Positions 5,889 through 29,433 of a stretch of DNA of 32,000 bases are shown here, one piece after another. Numbering within the stretch: position 1 is the stretch's first letter; each line of letters opens with the position of its first letter. The notes under the pieces were generated by a model. That model saw only the letters and a program-made list of their open reading frames with translations. It was not told the origin of the DNA and did no database searches. This DNA comes from Gemmata obscuriglobus. Its GTDB lineage: Bacteria; Planctomycetota; Planctomycetia; Gemmatales; Gemmataceae. Made by a program: the position numbers and the translations under genes. The stretch is taken from contig NZ_CP042911.1 in assembly GCF_008065095.1 (NCBI RefSeq), positions 4,590,001-4,622,000 of the forward strand, read 5' to 3'.

Positions 5889-5920
5889 CGGCCGCCGGCC
5901 CTCCCCTCCGGACCCGCCCC

Positions 5921-13286: not shown

Positions 13287-15212
13287 ATGCCCGACACCGC
13301 CCCCTCCACGTTCCTTGGGCTACCCACCGGCGCCAAACGCCGCGTGGACGCCGTGTGCGTCGCGTTCGAGCGCGCCGGGGCCGGCGCGCGGATCGAGGAC
13401 TACGTGGAGCAGGTCGAGCCGGCGGCCCGCGACGCGCTCCTGACCGAACTGGTCGCGCTGGAGCTGGAGCAGCGCCGGGCCGCCGGCGAGCGCCCGCAAG
13501 CGGCGGAGTACGTCGAACGCTTCCCGAGCCGTGCGCCGGCGGTACGCGCGGCGTTCGGAACGGCGACGCCCGCAGTGGGGGACGTGTTGGGCAAGTACCG
13601 GCTCACCGGGGTGCTCGGGCGCGGCGGGATGGGGGTGGTGTTCGAGGCGGACGACCCGGTCATCGACCGAAAGGTGGCGGTCAAGGCGCTGCCGGACGCG
13701 CGGTCCGCCGACCCGCACGCCCGCGAGCGGCTGCTGAGCGAGGCCCGCCTCGCCGGACAGTTACTACACCCGAACGTGGTGGCCGTGTTCGAAGCCGGAG
13801 AGGCGAACGGGGTCGCGTTCCTGGTCCTGGAGCGCGTCCCCGGCGGGAGCTGCGCGGACCGGCTCAAGCGCGACGGGGCGCTCGACTGGCGGTTCGCCAC
13901 CCGCGTCCTCGTGGACGCGTGCCGCGGGTTGGTCGCGATTCACGGGGCCGGGTTCTTGCACCTGGACGTGAAGCCAGGCAACATCCTGCTACCGGAGCGA
14001 GCCGGCACGCCGGACGGCTCGACCGGAAGCGGGGTGCTCGCGAAGCTCGCCGACTTCAGCCTGTCGGCTTCGGACGGCACCGTCACCGTCCCGGGTTCCA
14101 CCGCCGGCACGCCCGCGTACATGGCCCCCGAACAGCGCGACGGGGCACCGCTGACCCAGCGCACGGATGTGTTCGGGCTCGGGGCCGCGTACTTCGCGTT
14201 ACTCACCGGCTCGGCGCCTTACGCCGGCGCGACGGTAACGGAGGTGGTGGCGGAACAACTCCGCGAGCCGGCCCCGGACCCGCGCGCCTTGAACCCGGCG
14301 GTGCCCGCGAGGGTCGCCCGGATCGTCCGGAGCGCGATGGCCCCGCGACCGGAAGACCGCTACCCGTCGGCCGCGGCGCTGCTCACGGACTTGGAGAAGG
14401 TACTCGCCCCGCCGCGGCCGCGTCTCTGGCCGGCGGCGCTCGCTCTTGGGGCGCTGCTCGCGGCCGGCGCGTGGGCGGCGTGGGAACTGCTGCCCGGCCC
14501 CGGGCGGGCGCGCCAGCCCGCCGTGTTCGCAACGGTCGACACCTGGGAACCGCTCCTGGACCAACACGACTTGGGGCAATGGACGCCGGTGGTGCCCGAC
14601 GGCGTCACCCCGATCGGGGTCGGCCCGCAAAGCCTGTTCGGGCTGGTCACGCTCGACGGCCGCCCCGCGGTGCGGGCGACCGGAACGGGTTTAGGGAGCG
14701 TCGAGTCGGGCCGGGAGTTCGAGAACTTCCACCTGCGGTTCGAGTACCGCTGGGCGGAAGCGGCCGGCGAGCACTACGCGAGCGTGCGGTACCACTGCAC
14801 CGGGGAGCTCGGCTCGCGCGGCACGCACGGAATGCAGTTGCACCTCCAGCGGGCCGGCGAGTACCGGCGGCTCAACGACCTGCTCCGGATTGATGTCGGC
14901 GTGATCCGCGGCGGCGCGGTGGAATCGGTGCGCCCGGGCGGCCGGCGGATCGACCCCGAGTTGCTCGCGGAGGTCCCGGTGGGCCGGTGGAACCGGGCCG
15001 CGATCGTGTGTGTCGACGATTGGGCGGTCCATGTCATCAACGACACGCCGGTGCTGTCACTGGCCCGGTCGCGCCGGGCGGACCCGCCGGACGAGCCGCT
15101 CCGCCGCGGGCGCATCCGGTTCCAGTCGATCAAGGGCGAAATCTTTTTCCGCAACATTGAGGTCCGGCGCGTCACCGAACTGCCCCCGGAGTACCGGCGC
15201 CCCGCCGAGTGA
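13287..15212 (+). CDS. membrane Ser/Thr protein kinase with C-terminal extracytoplasmic DUF1080 (3-keto-disaccharide hydrolase / lectin-like) domain
   Basis: Kinase motifs: 'LGRGGMGVVFEA', 'VAVKAL', 'HLDVKPGNILL', 'LADFSLS', 'GTPAYMAPEQ'. The TM segment is 'LWPAALALGALLAAGAWAAW'. The DUF1080-like C-terminus has 'FENFHLRFEYRW' and 'GRIRFQSIKGEIFFRNIEVRRV'. Confidence 0.9.
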   Translation: MPDTAPSTFLGLPTGAKRRVDAVCVAFERAGAGARIEDYVEQVEPAARDALLTELVALELEQRRAAGERPQAAEYVERFPSRAPAVRAAFGTATPAVGDVLGKYRLTGVLGRGGMGVVFEADDPVIDRKVAVKALPDARSADPHARERLLSEARLAGQLLHPNVVAVFEAGEANGVAFLVLERVPGGSCADRLKRDGALDWRFATRVLVDACRGLVAIHGAGFLHLDVKPGNILLPERAGTPDGSTGSGVLAKLADFSLSASDGTVTVPGSTAGTPAYMAPEQRDGAPLTQRTDVFGLGAAYFALLTGSAPYAGATVTEVVAEQLREPAPDPRALNPAVPARVARIVRSAMAPRPEDRYPSAAALLTDLEKVLAPPRPRLWPAALALGALLAAGAWAAWELLPGPGRARQPAVFATVDTWEPLLDQHDLGQWTPVVPDGVTPIGVGPQSLFGLVTLDGRPAVRATGTGLGSVESGREFENFHLRFEYRWAEAAGEHYASVRYHCTGELGSRGTHGMQLHLQRAGEYRRLNDLLRIDVGVIRGGAVESVRPGGRRIDPELLAEVPVGRWNRAAIVCVDDWAVHVINDTPVLSLARSRRADPPDEPLRRGRIRFQSIKGEIFFRNIEVRRVTELPPEYRRPAE

Positions 15213-15265
15213 CGCGAACTCGAATGGAGTACACGGCACCCGGCGTGATCGCGTCGAGCCGCCTG

Positions 15266-16399
15266 CTACCCGCACGTGTCTACCACGACCACATCGACCC
15301 CCGCAACGGCCCGCAGCAGTTGATCCAATACGCTTGCATGGAAGAGCCGCCGGTACCAGGACCGCTGCGAACGCCCGATGACGATGTGCGTGATCCCGTA
15401 CTCGCGCGCGAACGACGACACGGCGTCCGGCAAGCTGGCCCCCTTGAAGCGCAGCGGAACGCCGTCCAACTGCTGGGCCAGAGTGAGCGAGTCCGTCAGC
15501 CGGCGCTCGGTCGCCGCGTCCACCCTCTCGGTGCGCTCGGAGGGAGTCTCGATATAGACCGCGTACCACGGGGCGCCGAACCGGTCGGCGAGCCGGGCGC
15601 CCTTGCGCAGCAGTTTTAGCGCATTCGGGCTGCGGCTCGACACGCACACCATCACCCGCTCGGACGTATTCGCAACTCCCGAATCGCGCTCCCGCTCCTG
15701 GCGCCGGCGGTCCAGCACGTGCGCCACCTGCTCCAAAGCGATCTCGCGCAACTGGTTCAGGTTCGGTTCCGTGAAGAAGTTCGCCAGCGCACGTTCGATC
15801 CGCTCCGCGGGATATATCTTCCCCGCCCGCATCCGCTCTTGAAGGTCTTCCGCCGGCAGGTCCACGTTCACCACTTGGTGCGCCTGGGCGAGTACGTAAT
15901 CCGGCACCCGCTCCTTCACCTTCACCCCGGTGAACCGCTCCACCATCTCGTACAAGCTTTCGAGGTGCTGCACGTTCATAGTGGTGATGACGCTGATGCC
16001 GGCCCGGAGCAACTCCTCCACGTCCTGGTACCGCTTACCGTGCCGCCCGCCGGGGGCGTTGGTGTGCGCCAACTCGTCCACCAGCACGACCGTGGGGCGT
16101 CGGCGGAGCACCGCGTCCAGGTCCATCTCCTCGAGTACTACGCCGCGGTACTCGAGCTTTCGACTCGGCACCTTCTCCAGTTCGCCGACCATCGCCAGCG
16201 TGTCCGCCCGGCCGTGCGTCTCGACCACGCCGATGGCCACATCGACGCCTTGCCGTTTGAGGCGCTGCCCCTCCTGAAGCATCTCGTAGGTCTTGCCGAC
16301 GCCGGGGGCGAAACCGAGATAAACCTTCAGCCGGCCGCGCTGCTGTTCGCGCAACAGCGACAAAAACAGCTCCGGGCTGGGGCGGGTGTCGGTGCTCAC
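15266..16399 (-). CDS. stand-alone KdpD N-terminal sensor domain + universal stress protein (Usp) domain protein; no TM or transmitter domains
   Basis: 'RGRLKVYLGFAPGVGKTYEMLQEGQRLKRQGVDVAIGVVETHGRADT…VLVDELAHTNAPG…RYQDVEELLRAGISVITTMNVQHLESL' matches the cytoplasmic KdpD N-terminal domain. The C-terminal part ('VMVCVSSRSPNALKLLRKGARLADRFGAPWYAVYIE…THIVIGRS') is Usp-like. The GTG start overlaps the upstream kinase stop (GTGA, 16396-16399). Confidence 0.85.
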   Translation of the reverse strand: MSTDTRPSPELFLSLLREQQRGRLKVYLGFAPGVGKTYEMLQEGQRLKRQGVDVAIGVVETHGRADTLAMVGELEKVPSRKLEYRGVVLEEMDLDAVLRRRPTVVLVDELAHTNAPGGRHGKRYQDVEELLRAGISVITTMNVQHLESLYEMVERFTGVKVKERVPDYVLAQAHQVVNVDLPAEDLQERMRAGKIYPAERIERALANFFTEPNLNQLREIALEQVAHVLDRRRQERERDSGVANTSERVMVCVSSRSPNALKLLRKGARLADRFGAPWYAVYIETPSERTERVDAATERRLTDSLTLAQQLDGVPLRFKGASLPDAVSSFAREYGITHIVIGRSQRSWYRRLFHASVLDQLLRAVAGVDVVVVDTCG

Positions 16400-18252
16400 G
16401 AGCGGCCCTCCGCGAGGTGCGCCGGGAGTATGATGCGGAACGTCGTGCCCTTCCCCGGTTCGCTCTCGCAGGTGACCGTACCGCGATGGGCGACCACCAC
16501 CTCTTTCACGATGGCGAGACCGAGCCCGGTCCCGCCCTCCTCGCTCTGACCCGGGATCCGAAAGAACCGATCGAACACGTGCGCCAGGTGCTCGGCCGGG
16601 ATGCCCACCCCGGTGTCCGCGACGCTCAGGACGACGGCCCCGTCGGTCGTCATGCCGGCCGCGAGTGCGACCGTGCCGCCCGGAGGCGTGTAGGTGATCG
16701 CGTTGTTCAGCAAGTTGCCGAGCGCCTGCCCGAACCGATCACTGTCCACCACCACCGCGGGCACAACGGCGTTCGTGTTCACCGCGAGCGTGATGTGCTT
16801 GTCGTCCGCACGGGCACGGGCCGCATCGGCGGCCGTTCGAAGCAGTTCTGCTGGATCTGCGGGATGAAACGTGCCCTCGTCGTGCGGCTTCTGCAGCCGG
16901 GCGAGTGCGAGCAACTGCTCAATGAGCGCGAGCAAGCGCTCGGCGCTGTCGCGGGCGTCGATCAGGAGTTCGGTCTGCTTCGTGGTCAGCGGCCCGACGG
17001 TTTCTTCAAGCAGAATGTGAACCGCGAGCCGCACCGAGGTGAGCGGCGTCTTCAGTTCGTGGCTCACGGTCGCCACAAGGTCACTCTTGAATTGATCCAG
17101 GAGCCGGAACCGGGTCACGTCGTGGAGCACCACCGCCGCGCCCAGCGTGTCCCCGTCCGGATCGCGGATCGGCCGCACGTGCGGGAGGTAGGTGCGATCC
17201 TCACCGCCGAGCCGGAACGAAACGGTCTGGTCGAACTGGTCCGGCTGGTAGGCGCGCTGAAGTTGGAGCGCGTCCGCAACCGGCCCGCCGAGCGGTTCGG
17301 GCGGCGACCACACCGGCCCCGGGTCGCCCTGCGCCGTGGGGCCGACGCCGAACAGTGCCCGGGCCGCCGGGTTCGCGAGGTCGGCGCGGCCCGCCGGATC
17401 GACCACCAGCACCGGGTCCGGAAACGAGTCGATCGTCGCCTGAGCGGTCCGCTGCGCCCGCACGAGCCTGTCGAGGTTGGACCTCCGATATTTGCGCAGC
17501 TCGCGCGTCATCACGTTGAACGCGGCGGCGAGCCGCCCGAGTTCGTCCCGGCCGAACACAGGAACCGTGCGCTCGAGTTGCCCGGAACCGCCGATCGCGT
17601 GCGCCGCCTCGGTCACGGCCCGGATCGGCCCGAGGATCGTGCGCAACAGGTACCACCCGGCCCCCGCGAGAAGCAGCGCGACCAGCCCGAGTGCGGCCCC
17701 GAACGCGCCCATTGCCGTGCGGGCAGTGTCGCGCGCGCGGTCGCGGGCCTGCTCCATGTTCTCTCGGTTCACGCGCAGAATCTCGCCCGCCACGGCCTTG
17801 CTCTCGTTGAACCGCTCCAACAGTCCGGAAGGGCCGAAGTACATGGCCGTTCGCTCGGGCGAGCCAGGGGGCAGCGCATAAAACTGGCGCCCCCGCTCGC
17901 GGTACTCCGCTTTTAGGCCACGCAGCCGGGAAACGAGTTCGTCCTCCGTCGGGTGGATCGTGACGTTCGCGGCCTCGACCGCGAACTGCTCCTCGAGCAC
18001 AACCCAGTTCGCCTCGAACTGGCGGGCCGCGAAGGCCTCGCGGCCCGCCAGGGCGAACTGGAACGACGAATCGATCCGCTCGGCCGCCTCGCCCAATCGG
18101 AACATGGCCTGCACGCTCACGTAGTTCTCGCGCAGGATGGCATCGATGCCCCCGCCCACGCGGTCGAGCAGCATGACGCCCGCCGCGCCCAGCGCGACCA
18201 GCAGCAGCGCGAGCGGGGCGAGCGACAGAAGGATACGTGTGCGTAGGCTCAT
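16396..18252 (-). CDS. membrane sensor histidine kinase (2 TM, ~170-aa extracytoplasmic domain, HAMP, PAS, HisKA, HATPase_c)
   Basis: TM1 is 'ILLSLAPLALLLVALGAAGVMLL' and TM2 is 'AFGAALGLVALLLAGAGWYLL'. HAMP: 'DELGRLAAAFNVMTRELRKY'. H-box: 'VATVSHELKTPLTSV'. N/G boxes: 'LLNNAITYTPPGG', 'VADTGVGIP', 'GGTGLGLAIVKEVV'. The ATG overlaps the upstream regulator stop (ATGA, 18249-18252). Confidence 0.9.
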   Translation of the reverse strand: MSLRTRILLSLAPLALLLVALGAAGVMLLDRVGGGIDAILRENYVSVQAMFRLGEAAERIDSSFQFALAGREAFAARQFEANWVVLEEQFAVEAANVTIHPTEDELVSRLRGLKAEYRERGRQFYALPPGSPERTAMYFGPSGLLERFNESKAVAGEILRVNRENMEQARDRARDTARTAMGAFGAALGLVALLLAGAGWYLLRTILGPIRAVTEAAHAIGGSGQLERTVPVFGRDELGRLAAAFNVMTRELRKYRRSNLDRLVRAQRTAQATIDSFPDPVLVVDPAGRADLANPAARALFGVGPTAQGDPGPVWSPPEPLGGPVADALQLQRAYQPDQFDQTVSFRLGGEDRTYLPHVRPIRDPDGDTLGAAVVLHDVTRFRLLDQFKSDLVATVSHELKTPLTSVRLAVHILLEETVGPLTTKQTELLIDARDSAERLLALIEQLLALARLQKPHDEGTFHPADPAELLRTAADAARARADDKHITLAVNTNAVVPAVVVDSDRFGQALGNLLNNAITYTPPGGTVALAAGMTTDGAVVLSVADTGVGIPAEHLAHVFDRFFRIPGQSEEGGTGLGLAIVKEVVVAHRGTVTCESEPGKGTTFRIILPAHLAEGRS

Positions 18253-19616
18253 GCGTCCCCCTTTAACTCGCGCTGCCGCTTACGGTACAGCGTGCTCGGG
18301 TTGATGCCGAGCACCCGCGCCGCCTCGTCCAGCGACGGCGCCGCCGCGACCACGCGGCGGATGTGTTCCGCCTCGAGGGCTTCGAGCGTGACCGGGCCGC
18401 CGAGTTCGACCCGCGCCGCCCCGCCCCCGGCGGCCGTGAGTTGACCCGGCATGTGTTCCAGACCCACACGCTCTTCGCGTGTCAGGATGACTCCGCGCTC
18501 TACCGCGTTCCGCAGTTCGCGAACGTTTCCGGGCCACAGGTACGCGTCCAGTGCCGCTTCCGCCTCCGGCGTGAACCCGGTCACCGGCTTCCCGGACTGC
18601 CGGGCGAAGAACCTCAGCAGGTGGCGCGCGAGCGGCAACACGTCCCCGCGGCGCTGACGCAGCGCGGGCATGGTGATTTCGATCACGTTCAACCGGTAAA
18701 ACAAGTCCTCGCGAAACCGCCCAGTCCGCACCTCAACCTCAAGCGGGCGGTTGGTCGCCGCGACGATCCGCACGTCCGCGCTCCGCGCCGCCGGCTCGCC
18801 CACCCGCTCGTACGTCTTGTCCTGGATCAGCCGCAACAGCTTCGGCTGGAGCGCCAGCGGCAGGTCGCCGATCTCGTCGAGGAACAGCGTCCCCCCGTCG
18901 GCCACGTCCACCTTGCCGATCTTGTCGGCAACCGCCCCGGTGAACGCGCCCTTCGCGTGCCCGAACAGGTCGCTCTCCAGCAGGTCAGCGGACAGGCTCG
19001 GGCAGTGAACGGTCACGAACGGGCGCGCGGCCCGCTTGCTGCGCGCGTGCAGTTCCCGGGCGAGCACCCCCTTGCCCGTGCCGCTCTCGCCCCGCACCAG
19101 CACCGTCGCTTCCGTCGGGGCAACCTGGAACGCTACGTCCAGGGCCGCGCGGACCGACGGCTCCGCGGAGTCCAGTTCGACCTCCGGCGGGAGCTGCCGG
19201 ACCTGTTCTTCGAGCGCCGCCACCCGGTCGCGCAGCCCGCGAACGAGCGCCGACCGGTCGAGGGCCAAGCGGAGTTGGTTCGGCGTGAACGGCTTCGGCA
19301 GGTAGTCGAACGCGCCCTTCCGGAGCGCCTCGATCGCGGTGTCCAGGCTCGCGTGCGCCGTGACGATGACGACGTGCAGGCCCGGCGCCGCTGCCAGCAG
19401 TTCGGGGAGCAGTTCGAGCCCCTTTTCGGGGCCGAGCTTGAGGTCGAGGAACGCGAGGTCGAACCGCTGCGCGCGAAGCGCCTCGAGCGCCTGCGCGCGG
19501 TTCGCGGCGTCCTTCACCGTGTGGCCGAAGCTCTCGAGCGCGATGCGGATCGTGCGCCGCAGGCTGGCCTCGTCGTCGATCACCAGCAACTGAAGCGTAC
19601 CGCGTGAAGTTTGCAT
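18249..19616 (-). CDS. sigma-54-dependent Fis-family response regulator (REC - AAA+ sigma-54 activator - HTH), NtrC type
   Basis: REC: 'LQLLVIDDEASL…DLAFLDLKLG'. Walker A: 'GESGTGKGVLA'. RpoN-contact loop: 'GAFTGA'. 'ELFYRLNV'-like: 'DLFYRLNVIEITMPALRQR'. C-terminal HTH: 'EAARVLGINPSTLYRKRQ'. I take ATG 19616 ('MQTSRGTLQLLVIDD'). The track's 26-aa extension to 19694 precedes the REC fold and overlaps the regulatory repeats. Confidence 0.9.
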   Translation of the reverse strand: MQTSRGTLQLLVIDDEASLRRTIRIALESFGHTVKDAANRAQALEALRAQRFDLAFLDLKLGPEKGLELLPELLAAAPGLHVVIVTAHASLDTAIEALRKGAFDYLPKPFTPNQLRLALDRSALVRGLRDRVAALEEQVRQLPPEVELDSAEPSVRAALDVAFQVAPTEATVLVRGESGTGKGVLARELHARSKRAARPFVTVHCPSLSADLLESDLFGHAKGAFTGAVADKIGKVDVADGGTLFLDEIGDLPLALQPKLLRLIQDKTYERVGEPAARSADVRIVAATNRPLEVEVRTGRFREDLFYRLNVIEITMPALRQRRGDVLPLARHLLRFFARQSGKPVTGFTPEAEAALDAYLWPGNVRELRNAVERGVILTREERVGLEHMPGQLTAAGGGAARVELGGPVTLEALEAEHIRRVVAAAPSLDEAARVLGINPSTLYRKRQRELKGDA

Positions 19617-19628
19617 GGTGCTGCCGGG

Positions 19629-19641
19629 TTGCAAATTGCAA
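19629..19641. promoter_or_regulatory. 13-bp palindrome TTGCAA-A-TTGCAA immediately upstream of the regulator start codon
   Basis: Two self-complementary TTGCAA hexamers (19629-19634, 19636-19641) lie 13 nt from ATG 19616 on the minus strand. Function is unknown: operator or leader element. Confidence 0.3.
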
Positions 19642-19650
19642 TCCTCGTCG

Positions 19651-19688
19651 TGCGGGGTGCAACCGGATGCGCCAAGCCCCGCATCCGG
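19651..19688. promoter_or_regulatory. interleaved inverted repeats, candidate enhancer (UAS) for the sigma-54 activator
   Basis: CCGGATGCG (19663-19671) / CGCATCCGG (19680-19688) is a perfect 9-bp inverted repeat. TGCGGGG (19651-19657) / CCCCGCA (19677-19683) is a second, overlapping repeat. The centre lies about 70-80 nt upstream of the -24 element at 19743, a usual distance for bEBP binding sites. Confidence 0.35.
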
Positions 19689-19740
19689 GTACATCTGCGA
19701 AACCGCTTGGATTTCTAGCAGTTCCGCGTTTGGGGCGACT

Positions 19741-19758
19741 TCGGCACGCGGCCTGCCA
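19741..19758 (+). promoter_or_regulatory. candidate sigma-54 (RpoN) -24/-12 promoter for the kdp operon
   Basis: tcGGCACGcggccTGCca compared with the consensus TGGCACG-N4-TTGCW: GG at 19743-19744 and GC at 19755-19756 have the canonical spacing (first G to the G of GC = 12 nt). It lies about 40 nt upstream of the first micro-ORF ATG (19797), and an NtrC-type activator is encoded divergently. Confidence 0.5.
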
Positions 19759-19796
19759 ATGAGTCGTTTCGCAATTCCGCTGCCGAGGGTTCCGCG

Positions 19797-19892
19797 ATGA
19801 ACGAAACGATCTGGCTACCCGCGCTGCTCCTACTCGGGCTGGCGTCCGTTGCGCTCATGTTCCTGTTCGTCGAAGCCTGCGACAAGGTGTGA
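19797..19892 (+). CDS. 31-aa single-TM micro-protein (hypothetical) at the head of the kdp operon
   Basis: My own translation: MNETIWLPALLLLGLASVALMFLFVEACDKV, ending in TGA. 25 of 30 third codon positions are G/C, like real genes here. It is too short for the ORF track, and no family was recognised. Confidence 0.4.
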   Translation: MNETIWLPALLLLGLASVALMFLFVEACDKV

Positions 19893-19899
19893 GGACGCC

Positions 19900-19980
19900 A
19901 TGCTCTGGTTCACCGCGCTCGTGACGCTGTTCCTATTGGGCTATTTGCTCGCAGCGCTGTTGCGCCCCGAGCGGTTCTAA
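19900..19980 (+). CDS. kdpF: K+-transporting ATPase subunit F
   Basis: My own translation: MLWFTALVTLFLLGYLLAALLRPERF, ending in TAA (26 aa). It matches the KdpF pattern: a hydrophobic helix ending in 'LLGYL..ALL.PE.F' (compare E. coli '…LLLGYLVYALINAEAF'). Its position upstream of kdpA fits. Confidence 0.75.
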   Translation: MLWFTALVTLFLLGYLLAALLRPERF

Positions 19981-19992
19981 CTCGGAGGATTT

Positions 19993-20118
19993 ATGCCCGC
20001 GTCTGCCGTGCTGGAAGTGGTGGCCGCGCTCGCCGCCATCGTGACCGTGTGGTTTGCTCTCCTGGGCTGGAAGCTCCTGCCCGGGGCGGACGGTCCCGGG
20101 TCCCGCGCACGCCCCTAA
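19993..20118 (+). CDS. 41-aa single-TM micro-protein (hypothetical) between kdpF and kdpA
   Basis: My own translation: MPASAVLEVVAALAAIVTVWFALLGWKLLPGADGPGSRARP, ending in TAA. GGAGGA at 19984-19989 lies just upstream of the ATG. Third positions are G/C-rich. No family was recognised. Confidence 0.4.
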   Translation: MPASAVLEVVAALAAIVTVWFALLGWKLLPGADGPGSRARP

Positions 20119-20224
20119 GGCGCGGGGCGGCCCGAACGAAACGGTCCGAACCGCATGAGCGGTTCCGGCACCCCCGCGCGCCGCGCGTGCGGATCTGACA
20201 CCATTTACCCGGAATGGCACCACC

Positions 20225-22120
20225 ATGATACTTCTGCCGGTCCTGATTATCGGCCTGACCGTCGCGCTGTCGATCCCGTTGGGCCGGTACATGGCCCGCG
20301 TGCTCGACCGCGCCGGCCCCAGCAACGCGATTGAGCGGCTCATCGACACCGGCGGCCAGAACTGGAAGCAGTACGTGTCCGCGATGCTGCTGTCCAACGC
20401 GGCCCTGTTCGTGTTCGGGTTCGTGGTGCTCGCCGCGCAGCCGTGGCACCCCGCGTTCCTGAACCCGGACAACAAGGGGATGCTGTCCCCCTCCACGATC
20501 TTCAACACCGCCTGCTCGTTCCTCACGAACACGAACCTCCAGCACTACAGCGGCGAGGTCCACCTGACGTACGGGAGCCAGATCTTCGGGATCATGTACA
20601 AGCAGTTCATGACGCCGGCGATCGGGCTGGCGGCCCTGCTGGCGGTGATCCGCGGCCTGCGCGGCGATAAGACCGATGGGGCAGCAGAACAAGCGGGAAG
20701 CTCCCCCGCAATAATTGTGGGCAACTACAACCTCGACGTGTGGCGCGGGCTGGTCTACGTTGCCCTGCCCCTCTCGGTGGTGGTAGGCCTTCTGCTGATC
20801 GCCGGCGGCACGCCCATGACGTTCCGGGGGAACCAGGACGTTCCAACGCTTCAGGTCGGGGCGCTGGGCACCACCGACGACGGCTCCGCGAAACCACAAA
20901 CGATCGCACGCGGTCCGGTCGCTGCGGTGGTGGCAATCAAGCAACTCGGCACCAACGGCGGCGGGTTCTTCGGGCCGAACTCGGCGCACCCGCTCGAGAA
21001 CCCGACCGCATGGACCAACGTGATCGAGTGCGTGTGCATCATCCTCATCCCGATGGCGTGCCTGGTGATGTTCGGCCACATGATCCGCAACCGCCGGCAC
21101 ACGGGGGTCATCTTCGGGGTGTCGCTTGTGATCCTGATCGCCCTGACCGCCTGGGGCCTTCACCACGACACCGCGAAGCCGAACCCGGGTCTGGCTGGTG
21201 GCCCGGCGATCCTCGACGCAAAGGGACAACCGCCCACCGTCACCACGCTCAACAGCGAGGGGGGCATCGAGCAGAAGCCGCTGCCCGACCACGCCACCCG
21301 CGAACGTGTGGGACTGCCGGTGACGCAAGACACCGGCAACCTGGAGGGCAAGGAGTTGCGGTTCGGCCCCGGCGCCGGGCCGACGTGGGCGGCGGTCACC
21401 ACCTGCACCAGCAACGGGTCGGTGAACTGCATGCACGACAGCCTGAACCCGCTCGCGGGGCTGGCGCCCCTCACCGGGATGTGGCTCAACTGCGCGTTCG
21501 GCGGCATCGGGGTCGGCCTCATCAACATGCTGATCTACCTCGTCGTCGCGGTGTTCCTCGCGGGGCTGATGGTGGGCCGAACGCCGGAGTACCTGGGCAA
21601 AAAGGTCGAAGCCCGCGAGATGAAGCTCGCCGCCCTGGCGCTCCTCGCGCACCCGATCCTGATACTGGCCCCGCTGGGGCTGTTCGCGGCGGCCGGCTGG
21701 CTCGACCCGTCCACCAACAACCCCGGCGCGCACGGGTTCGGCGAGGGGGTGTACGAGTTCACCTCGTCGTCCGCCAACAACGGCTCAGGCTTCGAAGGGC
21801 TGGGCGACACCTTCGGGTTCAGCGACGCCGACAAGAACGCGAGCGCCCCCGCGCCGTACGCCCCGCACTGGGACATCGCGTGCGGGCTGGTGATGATCCT
21901 CGCGCGGTTCATCCCGATCATCGCCCCGATCGCGTTCGCGGCGAGCCTCGGCGGCAAGAAGCCGACCCCGTTCACCTCGGGCACGCTCCGCACCGACACG
22001 GTCACGTTCGGGTGCGTGCTGCTCGGCACGATCCTGCTCGTGGGCGCGCTGATGTTCTTGCCGATCGCGGCTTTGGGGCCGGTGGCCGAGCACTTCGGGC
22101 CGCTCCCGTTCGGCCGATGA
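20225..22120 (+). CDS. kdpA: potassium-transporting ATPase subunit A (K+ channel-like subunit)
   Basis: '[27 protein letters not shown]', 'NLQHYSGE', '[24 protein letters not shown]', '[11 protein letters not shown]', '[11 protein letters not shown]', 'EYLGKK' are the conserved KdpA selectivity-filter and loop motifs. At 631 aa it is longer than the ~557-aa E. coli protein. Confidence 0.95.
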
Positions 22121-22202
22121 TTTCCGTTCGGCGCGCGGAACCAAGGGCGCCCTCCTGGGAATTCTGCGTCCCGACCCCCGCACTGCGAATTCAAGGAATT
22201 CA

Positions 22203-24398
22203 ATGAGTACCGCAACGCTTCCGAACCCGACCGCCGACGACCTGAAACAGGCGCGCCGGCTCAGCCGCAAGCAAGGACTGTTCGCCCCCGACCTGCTCAA
22301 GTCCGCGCTGGTCCGCGCGTTCGTCATGCTCCGGCCGGACATCCTGTGGAAGAACCCGGTGATGTTCACCGTCGAGATCGGCACCGTCCTGTCGATCGTT
22401 TACACCGGGGTGAAGGTCTTCGCGCCCGGTTCCACGCTCGCCTCGCTCGGGTACCTGGTCGCGCTGGACGTGTGGCTGTTCCTGACGGTGCTGTTCGCGA
22501 ACTTCGCGGAGGCGCTCGCCGAGGCCCGCGGTAAGGCACAGGCTGACGCGCTTCGCAAGACGCGCCAGGAAACGCCGGCCCGCCGGCTGCGCATCGCGAA
22601 CGCCGAGCGGACGCCGTCCGGTACACTCGCGGCGTGGCACCGCGACCCCGAAGCGTTCACCGACCGAATCTCGTCCACGCAACTGAATCGGGGCGACTTG
22701 GTGCTGGTGGTGGCCGGCGAGTTCGTACCCGGCGACGGCGAGATCGTGGAGGGGGTGGCCAGCATCGACGAGTCGGCGATCACCGGCGAGTCCGCCCCCG
22801 TAGTGCGCGAGGCCGGCGGCGACCGCTCCGGCGTAACCGGGGGCACCCGGGTGCTGTCAGACGCGATCCTTGTCCGCCTCACGACGTCCGCGGGCCAGTC
22901 GTTCCTGGACCGCATGATCGCGCTCGTGGAGGGCGCCGCGCGGCAGCGCACGCCGAACGAGATCGCGCTCTCACTGGTGCTAAGCACGTTCACCCTCATC
23001 TTCCTGGTGGTGACCGCGACTCTATGGCCGATGGCCCGGTACGCCGAGGAGTACATGGCGAACTACCTGGGCGCTGCGGGGCTGAAGAGCCTCGGGACCG
23101 ACGTCCCGACCCTCGTCGCGCTGCTGGTGTGCTTGATCCCCACGACCATCGGCGCCCTGCTCGCGGCCATCGGCATCGCCGGCATGGACCGCGCGCTGCG
23201 TGCCAACCTGATCGCGAAGAGCGGTAAAGCCGTCGAGGTGGCGGGCGATATCGACACGTTGCTGCTCGACAAGACCGGCACCATCACGCTCGGGAACCGC
23301 CGCGCGACCGAGTTCCGCCCCGCCGGGCACTTCGCCGCGGCGGAGTTGGGCCGGTTGGCGGCACTGGCGTCGGCCGCGGACGAGACGCCCGAGGGCAAGA
23401 GCATCGTCGAACTGTACCGCCGGCTCCCCGGCGCCGTGGACGCCACCACGCCCGCGGGGTCGAAGTTCGTGGCGTTCACCGCGCAGACCCGCATGAGCGG
23501 CATCGATTTGCCCGACGGCCGCAACATCCGCAAGGGCGCGGTCGACGCGATGCTGCGGCACTTGGCGCAAACCGGCGGTGTCGTCCCGCCGCAGGTGCAG
23601 GAGCAGGTGAACGCGATTGCGTCCCAGGGGGCGACCCCGCTGCTCGTGTGCGAAGGGAACCGGCTCGCGGGCATCGTGGTGCTGGAGGACATCCTCAAGC
23701 CCGGCATCCGCGAGCGGTTCGAGCGGCTGCGGAAGATGGGCATCCGCACAGTCATGGTTACCGGCGACAACCCGCTGACCGCGAAGGCCATCGCCGAGCA
23801 GGCCGGCGTGGACGACTACATCGCGGAGGCCACCCCGGAGGCAAAGCTGGCATACATCCGCAAAGAGCAACACGGCGGGCGGTTGGTGGCGATGATGGGC
23901 GACGGGACCAACGACGCGCCCGCGCTGGCCCAGGCGGACCTTGGCGTCGCGATGAACAGTGGCACGCAAGCGGCGAAAGAGGCCGGCAACATGGTGGACC
24001 TCGACAGCGACCCGACCAAACTGATCGAGTGCGTCGAGATCGGCAAGCAGCTACTGATGACCCGCGGCGCGCTGACCACCTTCAGCATCGCCAACGACGT
24101 GGCCAAGTACTTCGCCATCGTCCCGGCGCTGTTCGCAGCCACACTGCCGTGGCTCAAGGCCCTCGACTTCATGAACCTGACGAGCCCGGTGTCGGCGATC
24201 ATGGCGGCGGTGATCTTCAACGCGATCATCATTCCGCTGCTGATCCCCGTGGCGCTAAAGGGCGTGACGTACCGCCCGGTCGGGGCCGACGCACTCCTGC
24301 GCCGCAATCTGCTCGTCTGGGGCCTCGGCGGGGTGATCGCGCCGTTCGTCGGCATCAAGCTCATCGACTTGGCGCTCGCCGCGCTGGGGCTCGCGTAA
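22203..24398 (+). CDS. kdpB: potassium-transporting ATPase subunit B (P-type ATPase catalytic subunit)
   Basis: '[10 protein letters not shown]', '[18 protein letters not shown]', '[12 protein letters not shown]', the phosphorylation site '[14 protein letters not shown]', '[10 protein letters not shown]' and '[25 protein letters not shown]' are present. Confidence 0.95.
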
Positions 24399-24449
24399 TC
24401 CGCACCTTTGCACGCACCGCCCGGCGCGCCGGGCGAAAGGGAAATAACA

Positions 24450-25505
24450 ATGAAAGCTCTGCTCTCGAATCTGCTGCTCGTTGTGCTGAGTGTCGTCATC
24501 TGCTGCGTCCTGTACCCGCTCGGGCTGTGGGCGTTCGGTCAGGCGGTGTTTCCTACGAAAGCGAACGGCAGCCTGCTGACTGCGCCCGGCCCTGACGGCT
24601 CGCCCCGCGTCGTGGGGTCGAGCCAGATCGCCCAGCCGTTCACCGGCGACGAGTACTTCTGGCCGCGCCCGTCGGCGGCGGGGTACAACGGGGCCGCCGC
24701 GAGCGGCTCGAACTGGGGCGCCAACAACCCGAAGCTGCGCGACCGCGTCGCGCAGCAGCTTGGGTCGATCGTGCGGTACAAGAAAGGATCACCGTCGGCG
24801 GTCCGCACGCCCCAGCAGGACATGGAGGCGTGGTATTCGGTCAAGCCAGACCGAGCCGCCGACTGGGCCGGGGTATACTCCGTGGCCGCATCAAACTGGG
24901 CCAAAACCGACCTTGCAAAGGACAAATACGGGCTACAAGGTGAGTACATCCTCGCCTGGGCGCAAAGCCACCCGGAGGTGGTCGAGGATTGGAAGAAGGC
25001 GAACCCCACGAGGTCCGACGAGCCGAAGCCGGAAGACCTCGTGGCCGGGTTCTTCGCCAGCTTCGCCAAGACGCACCCCGGCAAATGGCCCGCAGCGGTC
25101 AAATCGAGGAATACCAACGGAACAGCTACCAAACGCATCGTACCGGCGGGGCCGGATGCGGCGGTCCACGCGAACTTCTTCGACATGTGGCTGCAAGACC
25201 CGGCGAACCGCGATAAGGTGGAGCACCTTGAACCGTTCCCGGCCGACATGGTAACCGCGTCCGGTGCGGGGCTGGACCCGCACATCACGCTTCGGAACGC
25301 GCTTTCGGTGTACCAACTCGATCGCGTTGCCGCGAAGCGGACGCCAGCCAGCGGCGATGCCGGACGAGTGCGTGCAGAGATCGCAGTGCTGGCCCGAGAG
25401 CACTCGTTCGTGCCGCTCTCCGGGCTGGTGGGCGAGCCGCTCGTAAACGTGTTGGAACTGAACCTCGAGTTAGACGCAAAGTTCCCGCTGACGGCCGCGA
25501 AGTGA
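24450..25505 (+). CDS. kdpC: potassium-transporting ATPase subunit C with a large internal insertion
   Basis: From ATG 24450: 'MKALLSNLLLVVLSVVICCVLYPLGLWAFGQAVFPTKANGSL', 'GSSQIAQPFTGDEYFWPRPSA', 'SGSNWGANNPKL', then 'MVTASGAGLDPHIT' and 'GEPLVNVLELNLELD'. All are KdpC hallmarks. The track start at 24408 adds 14 non-hydrophobic residues before the TM helix. Confidence 0.85.
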   Translation: MKALLSNLLLVVLSVVICCVLYPLGLWAFGQAVFPTKANGSLLTAPGPDGSPRVVGSSQIAQPFTGDEYFWPRPSAAGYNGAAASGSNWGANNPKLRDRVAQQLGSIVRYKKGSPSAVRTPQQDMEAWYSVKPDRAADWAGVYSVAASNWAKTDLAKDKYGLQGEYILAWAQSHPEVVEDWKKANPTRSDEPKPEDLVAGFFASFAKTHPGKWPAAVKSRNTNGTATKRIVPAGPDAAVHANFFDMWLQDPANRDKVEHLEPFPADMVTASGAGLDPHITLRNALSVYQLDRVAAKRTPASGDAGRVRAEIAVLAREHSFVPLSGLVGEPLVNVLELNLELDAKFPLTAAK

Positions 25506-25671: not shown

Positions 25672-28600
25672 ATGTGGACCCGCGCTACCCTATCTGCTTC
25701 GGGTCGTGCGCTCTCCGGACGGCCCCCGAGGCCAGCCCGCATCGCGTGGGCGTACCTGTTGTTCGGCCTTGCCTGGATCTGGCTGACCGACCGGGCCGTC
25801 TGGGCCGGCACGCGAAGCGACCAGGCGTTCTGGCTGTCGTCCGGGAAGGGCACGGCTTTCGTACTCCTGTCGGCGCTGCTCGTGTTTTATCTGGCGCGTC
25901 GCGAGCTCGAGACGTTCGCCGGCGCTGGCGCGCTGCTGCGGGCCGTCGCCGACGGCACCACCGATGCCGTGTTCGTCAAGGACCGCGACGGGCGGTACCT
26001 ACTCCTCAACGAGTCCGCGGCACGGTTCGCCGGTCGGCCGGTGGCCGAGCTGCTGGGTCGCGACGACACCGCTCTGTTCGACCCGGCCAGCGCCCGCATG
26101 GTTCGGGACCACGACCGGAGGGTGATGGCCGCAAACCGGGCCGAAACGACAGAAGAGGAGCTGACCACGGCCGGGGTCACCCGCACGTTCCTCGCGACCA
26201 AAGCCCCGTACCGCAACGAACACGGCGAGGTCATCGGGCTCGTGGGGATTTCGCGAGACATCACCGACCGCAAGGACGCCGAACGAGAGCTGCGGGCCGA
26301 ACGGGACCGGTTCCAGAAGTTCGTCGAGGCCGTTCCCCTGGTGCTGTGCTCCTTCCGGTTGAGCCCGGACGGAACGACGTCTTTTGTGTACTCCAGCCCG
26401 CGGATCGAGGACATCTACGGCATCGGCCCAGCCGCCCTTGCCCGAGACGCCGCACCGATCTTCGGCCTCATCCACCCTGACGACCGGGACCGCGTGCGAT
26501 CCGGTATCGAGGAGTCCGCGCGCGGTCTGTTCCAGTGGCGGGCAGAGTTCCGCGTCCGACCGCCCGGCCGCGACGAACTCTGGATCGACGGCCGTTCTGC
26601 GCCCGAGCGCGAGGCGGACGGCTCGACGGTCTGGCACGGGTACATCGCCGACATCACCCCACGAAAGCGGACCGAACACGCACTCCAAACGACCCGCGAC
26701 CAGCTCCGGGAGGCGCTCCGGGTCGCCCGGCTCGGCAGTTGGACCTGGGATGAGGTCGCCGGGCGCGTCGAGTGGTCCGACGAAGCCGCCGCGGTACTCG
26801 ACTTGCCGGCGCCCACCATCCCAATGCCACTGGATTCGCTCATGGGTCTGATCTACCCGGACGACCGGGGCACGGTCCTGGAGCAGTTCGCAGCTGTCCG
26901 CGCCGGTGCGGACCGGTTCGCCACAGACCTTCGCGTCACCACCGCCGACGGAGTGGCGTGGATCCACTGCCAGGCGCGAGCCGTACGGGAAACGGGCGGG
27001 CGGCTCGCGCGACTGGACGGGCTGGTCCAGGACATCACCGAACGGATGCGTGCAGCAGGGGCTCTCCGCGACCGAGAGAGCCTCCTTTCTATCGTCACCA
27101 GTGCGGCGCGAGTCGGGCTGGTGGTGGTGAACGACCGGTACGAGTACCTGTTCGCGAACGACACCTACGCGGCAGTGCTCGGCATACCCCCGGATCAAAT
27201 CGTCGGCCGGCGGGTGCCGGACCTGCTGTCCGCCAGTTGGCCACAGATCAAACCGCACCTCGATCGGGCGCTGGCCGGCGAGCACGTGAGCTACGACCTC
27301 GAGCGCGAGCCGCTGCCAGGGGGGGCCGGCTGGCGGACGCTGCGGGTCATGTACGAGCCGCGCCCGAAAGACGGGCGGCAAACAGCCGTCGTGGTCGTGA
27401 TCGACCAGACGGAACAAAAGCAGGCCGAGACCGCGATTCGGGAGAGCGAAAAGCGGTTCCGCACGTTGGTGAGCGCCCTGCCGGACGCGGTGTACATCAA
27501 CGCCGGCGGGCACGTGGCATTCTGTAACCCGGCTTGTGTTCGTCTGTTCGGCGCGTCCGCCCCCGAAGCGCTGATCGGCAAAACCCCGTTCGATTTGATG
27601 CACCCGGACGACCACGAGACCATCCGCCAGCGAATCGCAGCCATCTCCGCGAGCGGCGCTTCGAACCCCGGGATTGAGGAGCGGATCGTTCGCTTCGACG
27701 GCACCCCTGTTCCGGTGATGGTGACGGCGATCGCGATCACCGACCGCGGGGAGCGTGCGTTTCTGGTAGTCCTTCGTGATCTGAGCGAGCAGAAACGGGC
27801 CGAGCAGCAGCTCCACTATCAGGAGTTGCTGCTCCGGGAGGCGGCCGAACTCGCTCACGTCGGCGGCTGGTGGTTCGACCCGGTGACGCTTGAGGGCGAC
27901 TGGACCCCGGTTGTGGCCAACATCCACGACCTGCCCCCGGATGCGCCTCCGCCCAAACCGGACCGGGGCATCGAGTTCTATGTCGAAGAGGACCGACCGC
28001 GGATTGCGCAGGCGGTGCGCGCCGCGACCGAATCCGGCACGCCTTATGACCTTGAGCTGCAACTGGTTTCGGCACGCGGGGCGTTCAAGTGGGTCCGCAC
28101 CATCGCACGGCCGATCGTTGAGGAGGGACGAGTAATCCGGGTCCGCGGATCGCTCCAGGATATCACCGACCGTAAGCGGGCCGAGGCCGAGATCCGCCAC
28201 CTGAACGCGGATTTGGAGCAGCGCGTGCGCGACCGAACGATCGAACTGGAGGCAGCGAACGCCGAGCTGGAGGCGTTCTCCTACTCCGTCTCACACGACC
28301 TGCGGGCGCCGCTGCGCGCCATCGACGGGTTTTCTCAAATTGTGCTCAACGAGTACGGACCACAGCTCCCGGCCGACGCCCGCGAGTACCTGACCGACGT
28401 GTGCGCGAACACGCTGCGCATGGGACGACTGGTGGATGACCTCCTGACGTTCTCGCGGCTCGGCCGCCAGCCCGTCCGGCGCCAGCCGGTGAACACGAGC
28501 GAATTGGTCGCGGGCTGCCTCGACGAACTGTTGCGGCAGACCGGCGCCCGCCGCATCGAGATCCGGTCGAACGAACTGCCCCCCTGCGATGCGGACCCGG

Positions 28601-28989
28601 CCCTGCTCCGGCAGGTGTGGCTCAACCTGCTGGCGAACGCGCTCAAGTACAGCAGCCTCAGCAGCCTGGCGCTCATCGAAGTGGGCGCAACCGCGTCCCC
28701 GGACGGACCCGTCTACTTCGTCCGGGACAACGGCGTCGGGTTCGACATGCGGTACGCGCACAAGCTGTTCGGTGTGTTCCAGCGGCTGCACCGGGCCGAG
28801 GACTACGAGGGTACCGGCATCGGGCTGGCGCTGGTCCAACGCATCGTCCACCGCCACGGCGGTCGCGTGTGGGCCGACTCGGAACCGGGCAAAGGGGCGA
28901 CGTTCTCGTTCACCCTCGGACGGCCGCTCCCCGACCCGGGGCGGTGTTCCGCGGCCACGGCCTTGGTTTCCGGAGAGAGCGCACCATGA
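25672..28989 (+). CDS. multi-PAS (about six PAS/PAC units) membrane sensor histidine kinase
   Basis: Two N-terminal hydrophobic helices ('IAWAYLLFGLAWIWL', 'AFVLLSALLVFYLA'). Six recurring PAC-end linkers: 'SRDITDRKDAE', 'IADITPRKRTE', 'VQDITERMRAA', 'VIDQTEQKQAE', 'LRDLSEQKRAE', 'LQDITDRKRAE'. H-box: 'FSYSVSHDLRAPLRAIDGF'. HATPase: 'LLANALKYS', 'VRDNGVGFD', 'GTGIGLALVQRIV'. Confidence 0.9.
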   Translation: MWTRATLSASGRALSGRPPRPARIAWAYLLFGLAWIWLTDRAVWAGTRSDQAFWLSSGKGTAFVLLSALLVFYLARRELETFAGAGALLRAVADGTTDAVFVKDRDGRYLLLNESAARFAGRPVAELLGRDDTALFDPASARMVRDHDRRVMAANRAETTEEELTTAGVTRTFLATKAPYRNEHGEVIGLVGISRDITDRKDAERELRAERDRFQKFVEAVPLVLCSFRLSPDGTTSFVYSSPRIEDIYGIGPAALARDAAPIFGLIHPDDRDRVRSGIEESARGLFQWRAEFRVRPPGRDELWIDGRSAPEREADGSTVWHGYIADITPRKRTEHALQTTRDQLREALRVARLGSWTWDEVAGRVEWSDEAAAVLDLPAPTIPMPLDSLMGLIYPDDRGTVLEQFAAVRAGADRFATDLRVTTADGVAWIHCQARAVRETGGRLARLDGLVQDITERMRAAGALRDRESLLSIVTSAARVGLVVVNDRYEYLFANDTYAAVLGIPPDQIVGRRVPDLLSASWPQIKPHLDRALAGEHVSYDLEREPLPGGAGWRTLRVMYEPRPKDGRQTAVVVVIDQTEQKQAETAIRESEKRFRTLVSALPDAVYINAGGHVAFCNPACVRLFGASAPEALIGKTPFDLMHPDDHETIRQRIAAISASGASNPGIEERIVRFDGTPVPVMVTAIAITDRGERAFLVVLRDLSEQKRAEQQLHYQELLLREAAELAHVGGWWFDPVTLEGDWTPVVANIHDLPPDAPPPKPDRGIEFYVEEDRPRIAQAVRAATESGTPYDLELQLVSARGAFKWVRTIARPIVEEGRVIRVRGSLQDITDRKRAEAEIRHLNADLEQRVRDRTIELEAANAELEAFSYSVSHDLRAPLRAIDGFSQIVLNEYGPQLPADAREYLTDVCANTLRMGRLVDDLLTFSRLGRQPVRRQPVNTSELVAGCLDELLRQTGARRIEIRSNELPPCDADPALLRQVWLNLLANALKYSSLSSLALIEVGATASPDGPVYFVRDNGVGFDMRYAHKLFGVFQRLHRAEDYEGTGIGLALVQRIVHRHGGRVWADSEPGKGATFSFTLGRPLPDPGRCSAATALVSGESAP

Positions 28990-29429: not shown

Positions 29430-29433
29430 CCCT

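Follow-up and report, generated by a model that had tools for sequence, protein, structure and literature searches.

A sigma-54-linked two-component system and a stand-alone KdpD-N/Usp protein as predicted regulators of the Kdp pump in Gemmata obscuriglobus and other bacterial phyla

The regulatory question at the kdp locus

How is the Kdp potassium pump controlled where its genes lie beside neither a complete KdpD sensor kinase nor an OmpR-type KdpE regulator? The question is raised by a locus of the planctomycete Gemmata obscuriglobus, contained in a 32-kb stretch of contig NZ_CP042911.1 (positions 4,590,001 to 4,622,000; henceforth the window, to which all coordinates refer), in which kdpFABC on the plus strand is faced by a divergent group of three regulator genes on the minus strand. 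Pfam searches identify their products as an activator with a REC-AAA+(GAFTGA)-HTH_8 architecture, a histidine kinase with two transmembrane (TM) helices, HAMP and PAS domains, and a 377-residue protein composed of KdpD-N and Usp domains. The three genes are translationally coupled, with 4-nt start/stop overlaps at 18249-18252 and 16396-16399 that follow from the coordinates of the open reading frames (ORFs). An earlier description made from the nucleotide letters without database searches (the sequence-only reading) had reported this arrangement, and its gene content was borne out by Pfam and the ORF coordinates, with PF02702 and PF00582 found in the 377-residue protein and Sigma54_activat in the activator. 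It had also claimed that the window lacks an OmpR-type KdpE, and indeed no regulator combining a REC with a winged-helix domain is encoded in the 32 kb; the only REC domains present are those of the sigma-54 activator and of a single-domain receiver at about 28995-29429. Among database entries, Gemmata sp. JC717 / G. algarum gives the best match, with 98% identity. Together, the evidence presented below points to a two-layer control of the Kdp pump, transcriptional and post-translational, as a reasonably probable answer.

Conservation of the regulatory genes beside kdp

With the KdpD-N/Usp protein as query, a single scan of species-representative genomes recovered 80 loci, onto which six proteins of the window were mapped by tblastn. 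These loci (referred to by numbers such as L033) span Planctomycetota, Verrucomicrobiota, Desulfobacterota/Syntrophia, Acidobacteriota (Aminicenantes), Myxococcota and Gemmatimonadota. The kdp genes are present in 65 of them, and a full-length orthologue of the kinase (35-70% identity) is found beside the kdp region in 63. That the kinase aligns over essentially its whole length indicates that the same sensor is conserved, beyond the catalytic core. Kinase and activator occur together in 42/80 loci; in five loci no partner is seen, three of these being at most 11 kb long.

The genes are arranged in three distinct orders. Planctomycetota, like the window, show kdpCBA divergent from an activator-kinase-KdpD-N series; in Verrucomicrobiota, Desulfobacterota and Acidobacteriota the activator is followed by kinase-kdpFABC-KdpD-N; and Myxococcota, in an order close to that of Desulfovibrio vulgaris, have kdpFABC-KdpD-N-kinase with the activator alongside. 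The persistence of the linkage under three gene orders in different phyla suggests that it is functional rather than accidental. The synteny survey proposed in the sequence-only reading thus finds the set of kinase, activator and KdpD-N genes recurring beside kdp both in Planctomycetota and in further phyla. None of the 80 KdpD-N genes carries a histidine-kinase half; their coding sequence either stops just past the Usp domain or runs on for about 190 residues more.

Several verrucomicrobial loci additionally possess an extra REC gene between the kinase and the X-kdpF pair (X being a small ORF described below), namely L033 (4198-4935), L029-L031, L034, L036, L038 and L039. The sigma-54 activator is also present further upstream in L033, L034 and L038, and the remaining loci of this kind are either without upstream sequence or without the activator. 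In L033, the locus in which the C-terminal domain was checked, the product of the extra gene is a REC + TPR protein of 245 residues.

Promoter and enhancer elements

Upstream of the kdp operon of the window lies a candidate -24/-12 sigma-54 element on the plus strand (CGGCACGCGGCCTGCC, 19742..19757), with GG at 19743-44, GC at 19756-57, a GG-N10-GC spacing and a predicted transcription start near 19768; outside the invariant GG/GC it matches at five of eight positions. In Gemmataceae loci an equivalent YGGCAY-N5-xTGC is situated 30-64 nt upstream of small ORF X, the first gene of the kdp operon. About 20 of the 23 co-directional loci display a near-consensus TGGCAY-N5-TTGC in the gap upstream of the kinase gene (the activator-kinase gap where both genes are present), a position that would place it at the head of an operon kinase-X-kdpFABC-KdpD-N. 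Relative to the loci's own background, the enrichment of these sites corresponds to binomial tails of 7e-12 and 7e-26, values that are inflated by relatedness; the intergenic regions, however, do not align between phyla.

A second element, the palindrome TTGCAAATTGCAA (TTGCA-N3-TGCAA, 19629..19641), is a candidate enhancer positioned 113 nt upstream of the sigma-54 element. Its exact form occurs a single time in the window, against 0.01 expected occurrences. In 30 of 61 loci the sigma-54 site has, 60-125 nt upstream, a palindrome that agrees with this one at 9 or more of 10 positions; such matches have a background frequency of 0.06 per kb. The activator encoded next to it would be the protein expected to bind this palindrome. 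The sequence-only reading had proposed that the output of the system is routed through RpoN and an NtrC-type activator, and this proposal is well supported by the conservation of the -24/-12 site and the palindrome together with the kinase and the activator beside kdp across phyla. We accordingly consider it very likely that kinase, activator and sigma-54 promoter control the transcription of X-kdpF-Y-kdpABC, where Y denotes a second small ORF.

Other features of this region were also examined. A perfect 9-bp inverted repeat, CCGGATGCG-N8-CGCATCCGG (19663-19688), sits between the enhancer palindrome and the sigma-54 site, and was ruled out as the enhancer given its absence from the closest relatives. 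A scan of 15100-20300 for sigma-70 promoters and terminators yielded nothing useful for the divergent regulator operon. In L003, L004 and L008, as in the window, the sigma-54-like element is strand-symmetric and could in principle face the regulator operon too. Rfam models, applied at gathering thresholds to all 32 kb, matched nowhere, indicating that the long 5' region of kdp contains no ydaO/cyclic di-AMP (c-di-AMP) riboswitch or other known leader RNA; riboswitch control of kdp was discarded on this basis.

The small ORFs preceding kdpA would belong to the same transcription unit. ORF X (plus strand, 19797..19892) encodes a 31-residue peptide with a single TM helix (MNETIWLPALLLLGLASVALMFLFVEACDKV), and its conservation ahead of kdpF extends to 33 loci in four phyla, namely Planctomycetota, Verrucomicrobiota, Desulfobacterota and Acidobacteriota (within L003-L069 and others). 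Its C-terminus conforms to the pattern F[VI]xxC[DE][KR][VI], the version in the window ending in FVxxCDKV, and its divergence by codon position (0.40/0.23/0.61, with the third position most variable) is typical of coding sequence. A library of 1.84 billion proteins contains 36 cluster representatives that match it, every match being C-terminal. The peptide has no match among Pfam or NCBIfam families, was not called by NCBI in G. algarum, and may represent a leader peptide or a small component of such kdp operons that is yet to be described. It is followed on the plus strand by kdpF (19900..19980; 26 residues), which scores above the cut-off of TIGR02115 (E = 2.5e-9) and corresponds to a gene with PF09604 in G. 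algarum. ORF Y (plus strand, 19993..20118), which lies between kdpF and kdpA and encodes a hydrophobic peptide of 41 residues, is of uncertain status: it is called as a 41-residue gene in G. algarum, and L009 provides the sole further homologue found. In L012 a unit that includes AGGCTTGTGAACTGCG is repeated in tandem in the X-kdpF intergenic region, where its three copies follow one another with a period of 23 nt.

The activator and the histidine kinase

The activator gene (minus strand, 18249..19616) encodes an NtrC-type sigma-54 enhancer-binding response regulator with Response_reg, Sigma54_activat, AAA_lid_14 and HTH_8 domains in Pfam. Its start is most likely M27 (19616) and not position 19694, to which the longest ORF reaches: homologues align from M27+7, and a product of 453 residues is called by NCBI in G. 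algarum. Counted from M27, the intact GAFTGA loop occupies residues 223-228. In Gemmata sp. JC717 / G. algarum (L081/L082, 6232-8103) the activator is separated from the kinase by a gene for a 623-residue AA_permease_2 protein (an amino-acid permease), in place of the 4-nt overlap seen in the window.

Pfam matches of the 618-residue kinase (minus strand, 16396..18252) comprise HAMP, PAS_4, HisKA and HATPase_c, and together with an AlphaFold2 (AF2) model they give the order TM1, periplasmic four-helix bundle, TM2, HAMP, PAS, DHp and CA. The periplasmic region has about 150 residues and is bounded by two hydrophobic helices. The AF2 model of residues 1-265 is all-helical, with the succession TM / four-helix bundle / TM / HAMP and a confidence score (pLDDT) of 87. 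The top Foldseek matches of this model are a sensor-TM-HAMP fragment of NarQ and other four-helix-bundle sensors, with weak E-values of about 2e-3, so that the sensor is tentatively a NarQ-like bundle; a PDB sequence search with the sensor gave no significant match. A periplasmic DSSFQFAL motif at residues 61-68 is invariant among homologues, for which a search with the kinase N-terminus returned mostly fragments that sufficed for an alignment, not for a census.

The best family matches of the kinase are to WalK, PnpS, PhoR and AtoS, with all NCBIfam equivalog scores far under their cut-offs. Family searches revealed neither a DUF4118 or other KdpD-type membrane region nor a GAF region in this protein. 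As judged from these comparisons, the kinase does not represent the C-terminal half of a KdpD; homology to KdpD is limited to the generic DHp/CA core.

The stand-alone KdpD-N/Usp protein

The 377-residue protein (minus strand, 15266..16399) is a soluble, kinase-less short KdpD. In Pfam it comprises KdpD-N (PF02702, E = 4e-94) and Usp (PF00582) and nothing further, the DUF4118/TM, GAF and transmitter parts of KdpD being absent. Its 120 closest homologues all have 361-387 residues and the identical two-domain build, and it is 75-98% identical to its Gemmataceae homologues. Its match to the PRK10490 model, which has 895 positions, is confined to 5-372. Against NF038185 ('KdpD-like non-kinase potassium sensor') it attains 382 bits (E = 3.5e-114) where the cut-off is 550 bits, from which we conclude that it shares this architecture without being a member of that narrow NCBI model. 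It also matches the KdpD N-domain of PDB 2R8R with E = 1e-73 and at least 60% identity.

The protein has the Walker A motif GFAPGVGKT (G-x5-GKT) at G29-T37, followed by Y38 where Escherichia coli has W39, and Walker B at D108/E109 (DELAH, 108-112). The arginine in LQERMRAGKIY we take to occupy the position of E. coli R190. The catalytic motifs expected of a KdpD-N serine kinase are all intact. The Usp domain contains R265-x3-R-x8-WYAVY, a perfect match to the E. coli-type RxxxR-x8-WxAVY; the same stretch, read as SRS-x20-WYAVY, agrees in spacing and in its S and Y residues, at positions shown to matter, with the Staphylococcus aureus c-di-AMP motif SxS-x20-FTAxY, and may thus be of either type. 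No structure for the Usp domain of KdpD from S. aureus was retrieved by PDB sequence search.

A function for such a protein is suggested by the work of Silberberg et al. 2024 (PMC11018627), in which KdpD-N emerges as an atypical serine kinase whose phosphorylation of S162, in the TGES motif of KdpB, inactivates the pump. KdpD(1-230) alone phosphorylates KdpB S162, Walker A, Walker B (D109/E110) and W39/R190 being required for the reaction, and a natural protein of Deinococcus geothermalis consisting of only KdpD-N and Usp also phosphorylates KdpB, under the control of c-di-AMP (PMC11018627). The same study notes that kinase-less forms of KdpD occur mostly in species without KdpE. In the window, kdpB (plus strand, 22203..24398) encodes a 731-residue P-type ATPase subunit that aligns with E. 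coli KdpB (6HRA_B) with E = 1e-241; E161/S162 of E. coli correspond to E196/S197, within TGES at 194-197, and DKTGT is found at 356. By analogy, the 377-residue protein would phosphorylate KdpB, and we lean toward regarding it as a post-translational brake on this subunit. The sequence-only reading had instead taken it for the sensor of a split KdpD that acts in trans on a different kinase. This view is not supported as stated, as the adjacent kinase is no KdpD C-terminal half and KdpD-N has a published function of its own (PMC11018627); modulation of the kinase in trans is a less economical, though possible, reading.

In 22/80 loci the KdpD-N and Usp domains are fused to a PTS_EIIA_2 domain (PF00359, E = 6.5e-15), for example in L041 (10001-11677); the others are L035, L037, L042, L043, L049-L051, L053, L054, L056-L060, L062, L063, L066, L068, L071, L073 and L078. 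The EIIA domain is absent from the KdpD-N/Usp protein of the window. These fusions recall the interaction of EIIA(Ntr) (PtsN) with KdpD in E. coli.

Comparison with known systems

The closest described counterpart is found in D. vulgaris Hildenborough, for which Rajeev et al. (PMC3333781) reported in 2011 a kdp operon containing genes for the sigma-54 regulator DVU3334, the PAS kinase DVU3335 and the KdpD-N+Usp protein DVU3336, and showed by DNA-affinity-purified-chip (DAP-chip) that DVU3334 binds upstream of kdpF. The sigma-54 regulome of 2015 (Kazakov et al., PMC4641369) lists DVU3334 as the regulator of kdpFABC (DVU3339.1-DVU3337). The statement of the sequence-only reading that it knew of no characterized example of this three-part circuit is therefore not correct, since DVU3334-3336 has the same three parts (PMC3333781, PMC4641369).

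The two loci share the three types of regulatory protein linked to kdpFABC, an activator with GAFTGA, a sigma-54 promoter predicted upstream of kdpF and a palindrome with a 3-nt spacer about 150 nt upstream of kdpF. The D. vulgaris supplement gives the DVU3334 site as CGTTACATTTTGTAACG, at -149 of kdpF, and GTTGCGATATGCAAC as a DVU3305 site validated by electrophoretic mobility shift assay (EMSA). The palindrome of the window, there GGTTGCAAATTGCAATC, agrees with both CGTTACATTTTGTAACG and GTTGCGATATGCAAC in half-site and in 3-nt-spacer geometry, and differs from the DVU3334 site in one half-site position, A versus G. The loci further differ in that kdpFABC, KdpD-N, kinase and activator form a single operon in D. 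vulgaris but a divergent regulator operon is present here, and in that kdp of D. vulgaris is bound by two further regulators. The likeness to DVU3334-3336 is one of domain make-up, linkage and sites.

With the short KdpD/Usp serine kinase of D. geothermalis (DgKdpD; PMC11018627) the 377-residue protein shares its two domains, the lack of TM, GAF and DHp/CA regions, the Walker A G-x5-GKT and Walker B DE motifs, a gene linked to kdp and a KdpB with the TGES serine. Further short KdpDs are known from Anabaena, Deinococcus radiodurans and Alicyclobacillus (PMC11018627). In these known cases the gene follows kdpC, whereas here it follows the sigma-54-linked kinase, and transcription there proceeds via a separate, unspecified two-component system, a riboswitch or no known route (PMC11018627). 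DgKdpD is stimulated by c-di-AMP; the Usp motif in the window matches the E. coli type.

The locus resembles the KdpD/KdpE system of E. coli in its pump genes, in its homologous KdpD-N and Usp domains and presumably in its logic of induction at low K+ and inhibition of the pump at high K+. It differs in that its KdpD has no DUF4118/TM, GAF or transmitter regions and the window no OmpR-type KdpE, and in having a sigma-54-type promoter with a remote enhancer instead of a sigma-70 promoter with a proximal KdpE box. The kinase shares the order TM, helical periplasmic domain, TM, HAMP, (PAS), DHp and CA with KinB/AlgB, AtoS/AtoC, ZraS/ZraR and sensors of the NarQ-type four-helix-bundle-HAMP class, and like the kinases of the NtrC-family pairs it is partnered with a REC-AAA+-HTH_8 activator; one of its homologues is in fact named 'KinB' by the Joint Genome Institute. 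It is set apart from these pairs by NCBIfam equivalog scores far under the cut-offs, its own invariant DSSFQFAL and kdp as the target operon.

Literature searches on sigma-54 and kdp, on enhancer-binding proteins and KdpD, and on KdpD and Planctomycetes returned no description of the system outside D. vulgaris or of its wide distribution, and a comparative paper on sigma-54 does not mention Planctomycetes. The system of the window hence belongs to a known but poorly characterized kind, to which the present analysis adds the breadth of its conservation and defined cis-elements. In effect, a little-noticed observation of 2011 in D. vulgaris is extended to a widespread alternative to KdpD/KdpE. 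A possible answer is also obtained to a question left open by Silberberg et al. (PMC11018627), namely how transcription is controlled in organisms with a short KdpD: in Planctomycetota, Verrucomicrobiota, Desulfobacterota/Syntrophia, Acidobacteriota and Myxococcota this would be through a dedicated kinase with four-helix bundle, HAMP and PAS domains, together with an NtrC-type activator, a palindromic enhancer and a sigma-54 promoter, for which exact sites for mutagenesis are supplied here. What had been taken for a detached sensor is more readily understood as a serine kinase that inhibits the pump on its own.

A two-layer model and its alternatives

We propose that in the first layer the membrane kinase, through its periplasmic four-helix bundle, HAMP and cytoplasmic PAS domains, would respond to a signal that is presumably K+ or osmotic and would phosphorylate the NtrC-type activator encoded next to it on the REC domain. 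The latter protein would then bind TTGCA-N3-TGCAA at 19629-19641 and, through its GAFTGA loop and ATP-dependent remodelling, would enable the RpoN-holoenzyme to open the -24/-12 promoter at 19742-19757, which would drive the operon X-kdpF-Y-kdpA-kdpB-kdpC. In the second layer the 377-residue KdpD-N+Usp protein would act as a stand-alone short KdpD and not as the sensor half of the kinase: its Walker A/B-containing KdpD-N domain would phosphorylate the TGES serine of KdpB (S197), switching off pumps already resident in the membrane when K+ is replete, with the Usp domain serving as a regulatory input.

Several points weigh against this model. The -24/-12 element of the window is off consensus (CGGCAC...CTGCC). 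It is moreover quasi-palindromic (GGCA-N8-TGCC, 19742-19758) and scores equally or almost equally on the minus strand, for which reason its strand was assigned via the one-way sites of relatives (L006, L007, L009, L011) and the enhancer on its far side. The evidence from D. vulgaris is limited to binding in vitro, and the DVU3334 motif is not listed in the portion of EMSA Table S6 considered here. No rpoN gene is encoded within the 32 kb, beyond which a distant kdpDE may exist. All P-type ATPases carry the TGES serine, and its conservation therefore does not separate the models. Lastly, the genes for the kinase and KdpD-N overlap by 4 nt here and overlap in the reverse order in Myxococcota loci, which fits a physical partnership between the two proteins.

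This last point speaks for the account favored by the sequence-only reading, in which KdpD-N+Usp is a detached KdpD sensing module. Binding in trans to the HAMP-PAS kinase, it would adjust the balance between kinase and phosphatase activity of that protein, yielding a three-protein input to the sigma-54 activator. The overlap in the window is a GTGA that joins the kinase stop to the KdpD-N start, and the two genes adjoin and overlap in the opposite order in the myxococcal loci L074, L075 and L079. The N-terminal domain of E. coli KdpD, studied by Heermann and colleagues, reportedly modulates the transmitter and can complement in trans. The two genes are also adjacent in D. vulgaris, where Rajeev et al. 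(PMC3333781) read DVU3336/3335 as one kinase 'split into two ORFs'. However, the kinase is unrelated to the KdpD C-terminal half beyond the DHp/CA core and owns periplasmic and PAS sensors, and in most phyla the KdpD-N gene is placed after kdpC, several genes from the kinase. Furthermore, short KdpDs persist where the two-component systems are unrelated or wanting, and act there on KdpB (PMC11018627). A detached sensing module, which would be compatible with a serine-kinase role, thus appears a tentative alternative, for which we see perhaps a one-in-four chance.

Combining the two activities, the KdpD-N/Usp protein could both phosphorylate KdpB and dock on the kinase to shut off sigma-54-dependent kdp transcription, so that one cytoplasmic sensor of nucleotide or K+ status would coordinate pump and promoter via two partners. 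On this reading the EIIA(Ntr)-like fusions of sister lineages would plug in the nitrogen phosphotransferase system (PTS), and peptide X would be a further small component; we regard such a dual role as conceivable but unlikely.

More doubtful still is that KdpD-N+Usp works at the level of DNA or the activator, for example by stabilizing the activator at its enhancer, or as a plain nucleotide/K+ sensor, in either case without phosphorylating KdpB. The isolated N-terminal domain of E. coli KdpD is said, from work of Heermann and colleagues in 2003, to stabilize KdpE at its DNA site, and both the NCBIfam name 'KdpD-like non-kinase potassium sensor' and the E. coli-type Usp motif RxxxR-x8-WxAVY could be taken in the same sense. 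Yet the regulator here comes from another family than KdpE, the full Walker A/B set is kept under the strong conservation (75-98% identity) seen across Gemmataceae, and there is direct biochemistry for serine-kinase activity in a natural short KdpD (PMC11018627), all of which render this idea improbable.

Finally, that the kinase/activator pair controls some other target and is only incidentally placed here, with kdp constitutive or under a KdpD/KdpE pair encoded outside the window, is very improbable: such a distant kdpDE, the mere 5/8 match of the sigma-54 site and the permease gene between activator and kinase in G. algarum would allow it, but kinase, activator, sigma-54 site and palindrome are linked to kdp across at least five phyla in three gene orders, the kinase shares a sigma-54 operon with kdpFABC in many loci, the palindrome occurs at no other place in the window, and kinase-less KdpD is found mostly in species without KdpE (PMC11018627).

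Pump subunits and neighboring genes

The remaining pump genes are on the plus strand. kdpA (20225..22120; PF03814, E = 2e-188) encodes 631 residues, and KdpA and KdpB both exceed the lengths of their E. coli counterparts. The start of kdpC (24450..25505; PF02669) is most likely M15 (24450) rather than 24408, from which the long ORF extends; the resulting 351-residue product is that annotated in G. algarum. In the numbering of the long ORF, PF02669 matches KdpC at residues 20-128 and again at about 275-356; between the two conserved segments is an insertion of about 150 residues that is neither repetitive nor of low complexity. The protein consequently measures 351-365 residues against the usual ~190, and a long KdpC is also encoded in other Planctomycetota loci and in some Desulfobacterota-like loci (L035, L037, L050).

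Directly downstream of kdpC, on the plus strand, are genes for a multi-PAS histidine kinase of 1105 residues (25672-28989) and the single-domain receiver mentioned above (~28995-29429). As synteny with kdp is seen for neither gene in the related loci, this kinase was dismissed as a further kdp regulator, and the two are probably an unrelated two-component pair. Two long ORFs, at 5507-7351 (plus strand, 614 residues) and 29407-31854 (minus strand, 815 residues), have no Pfam match and, in a window of 66-72% G+C, may not be genes. On the other side, convergent with the KdpD-N/Usp gene, lies a gene (plus strand, 13287-15212) for a Ser/Thr protein kinase fused to a 3-keto-disaccharide-hydrolase-like domain; the same neighbor is present in G. 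algarum, with an extracytoplasmic function (ECF) sigma factor beside it.

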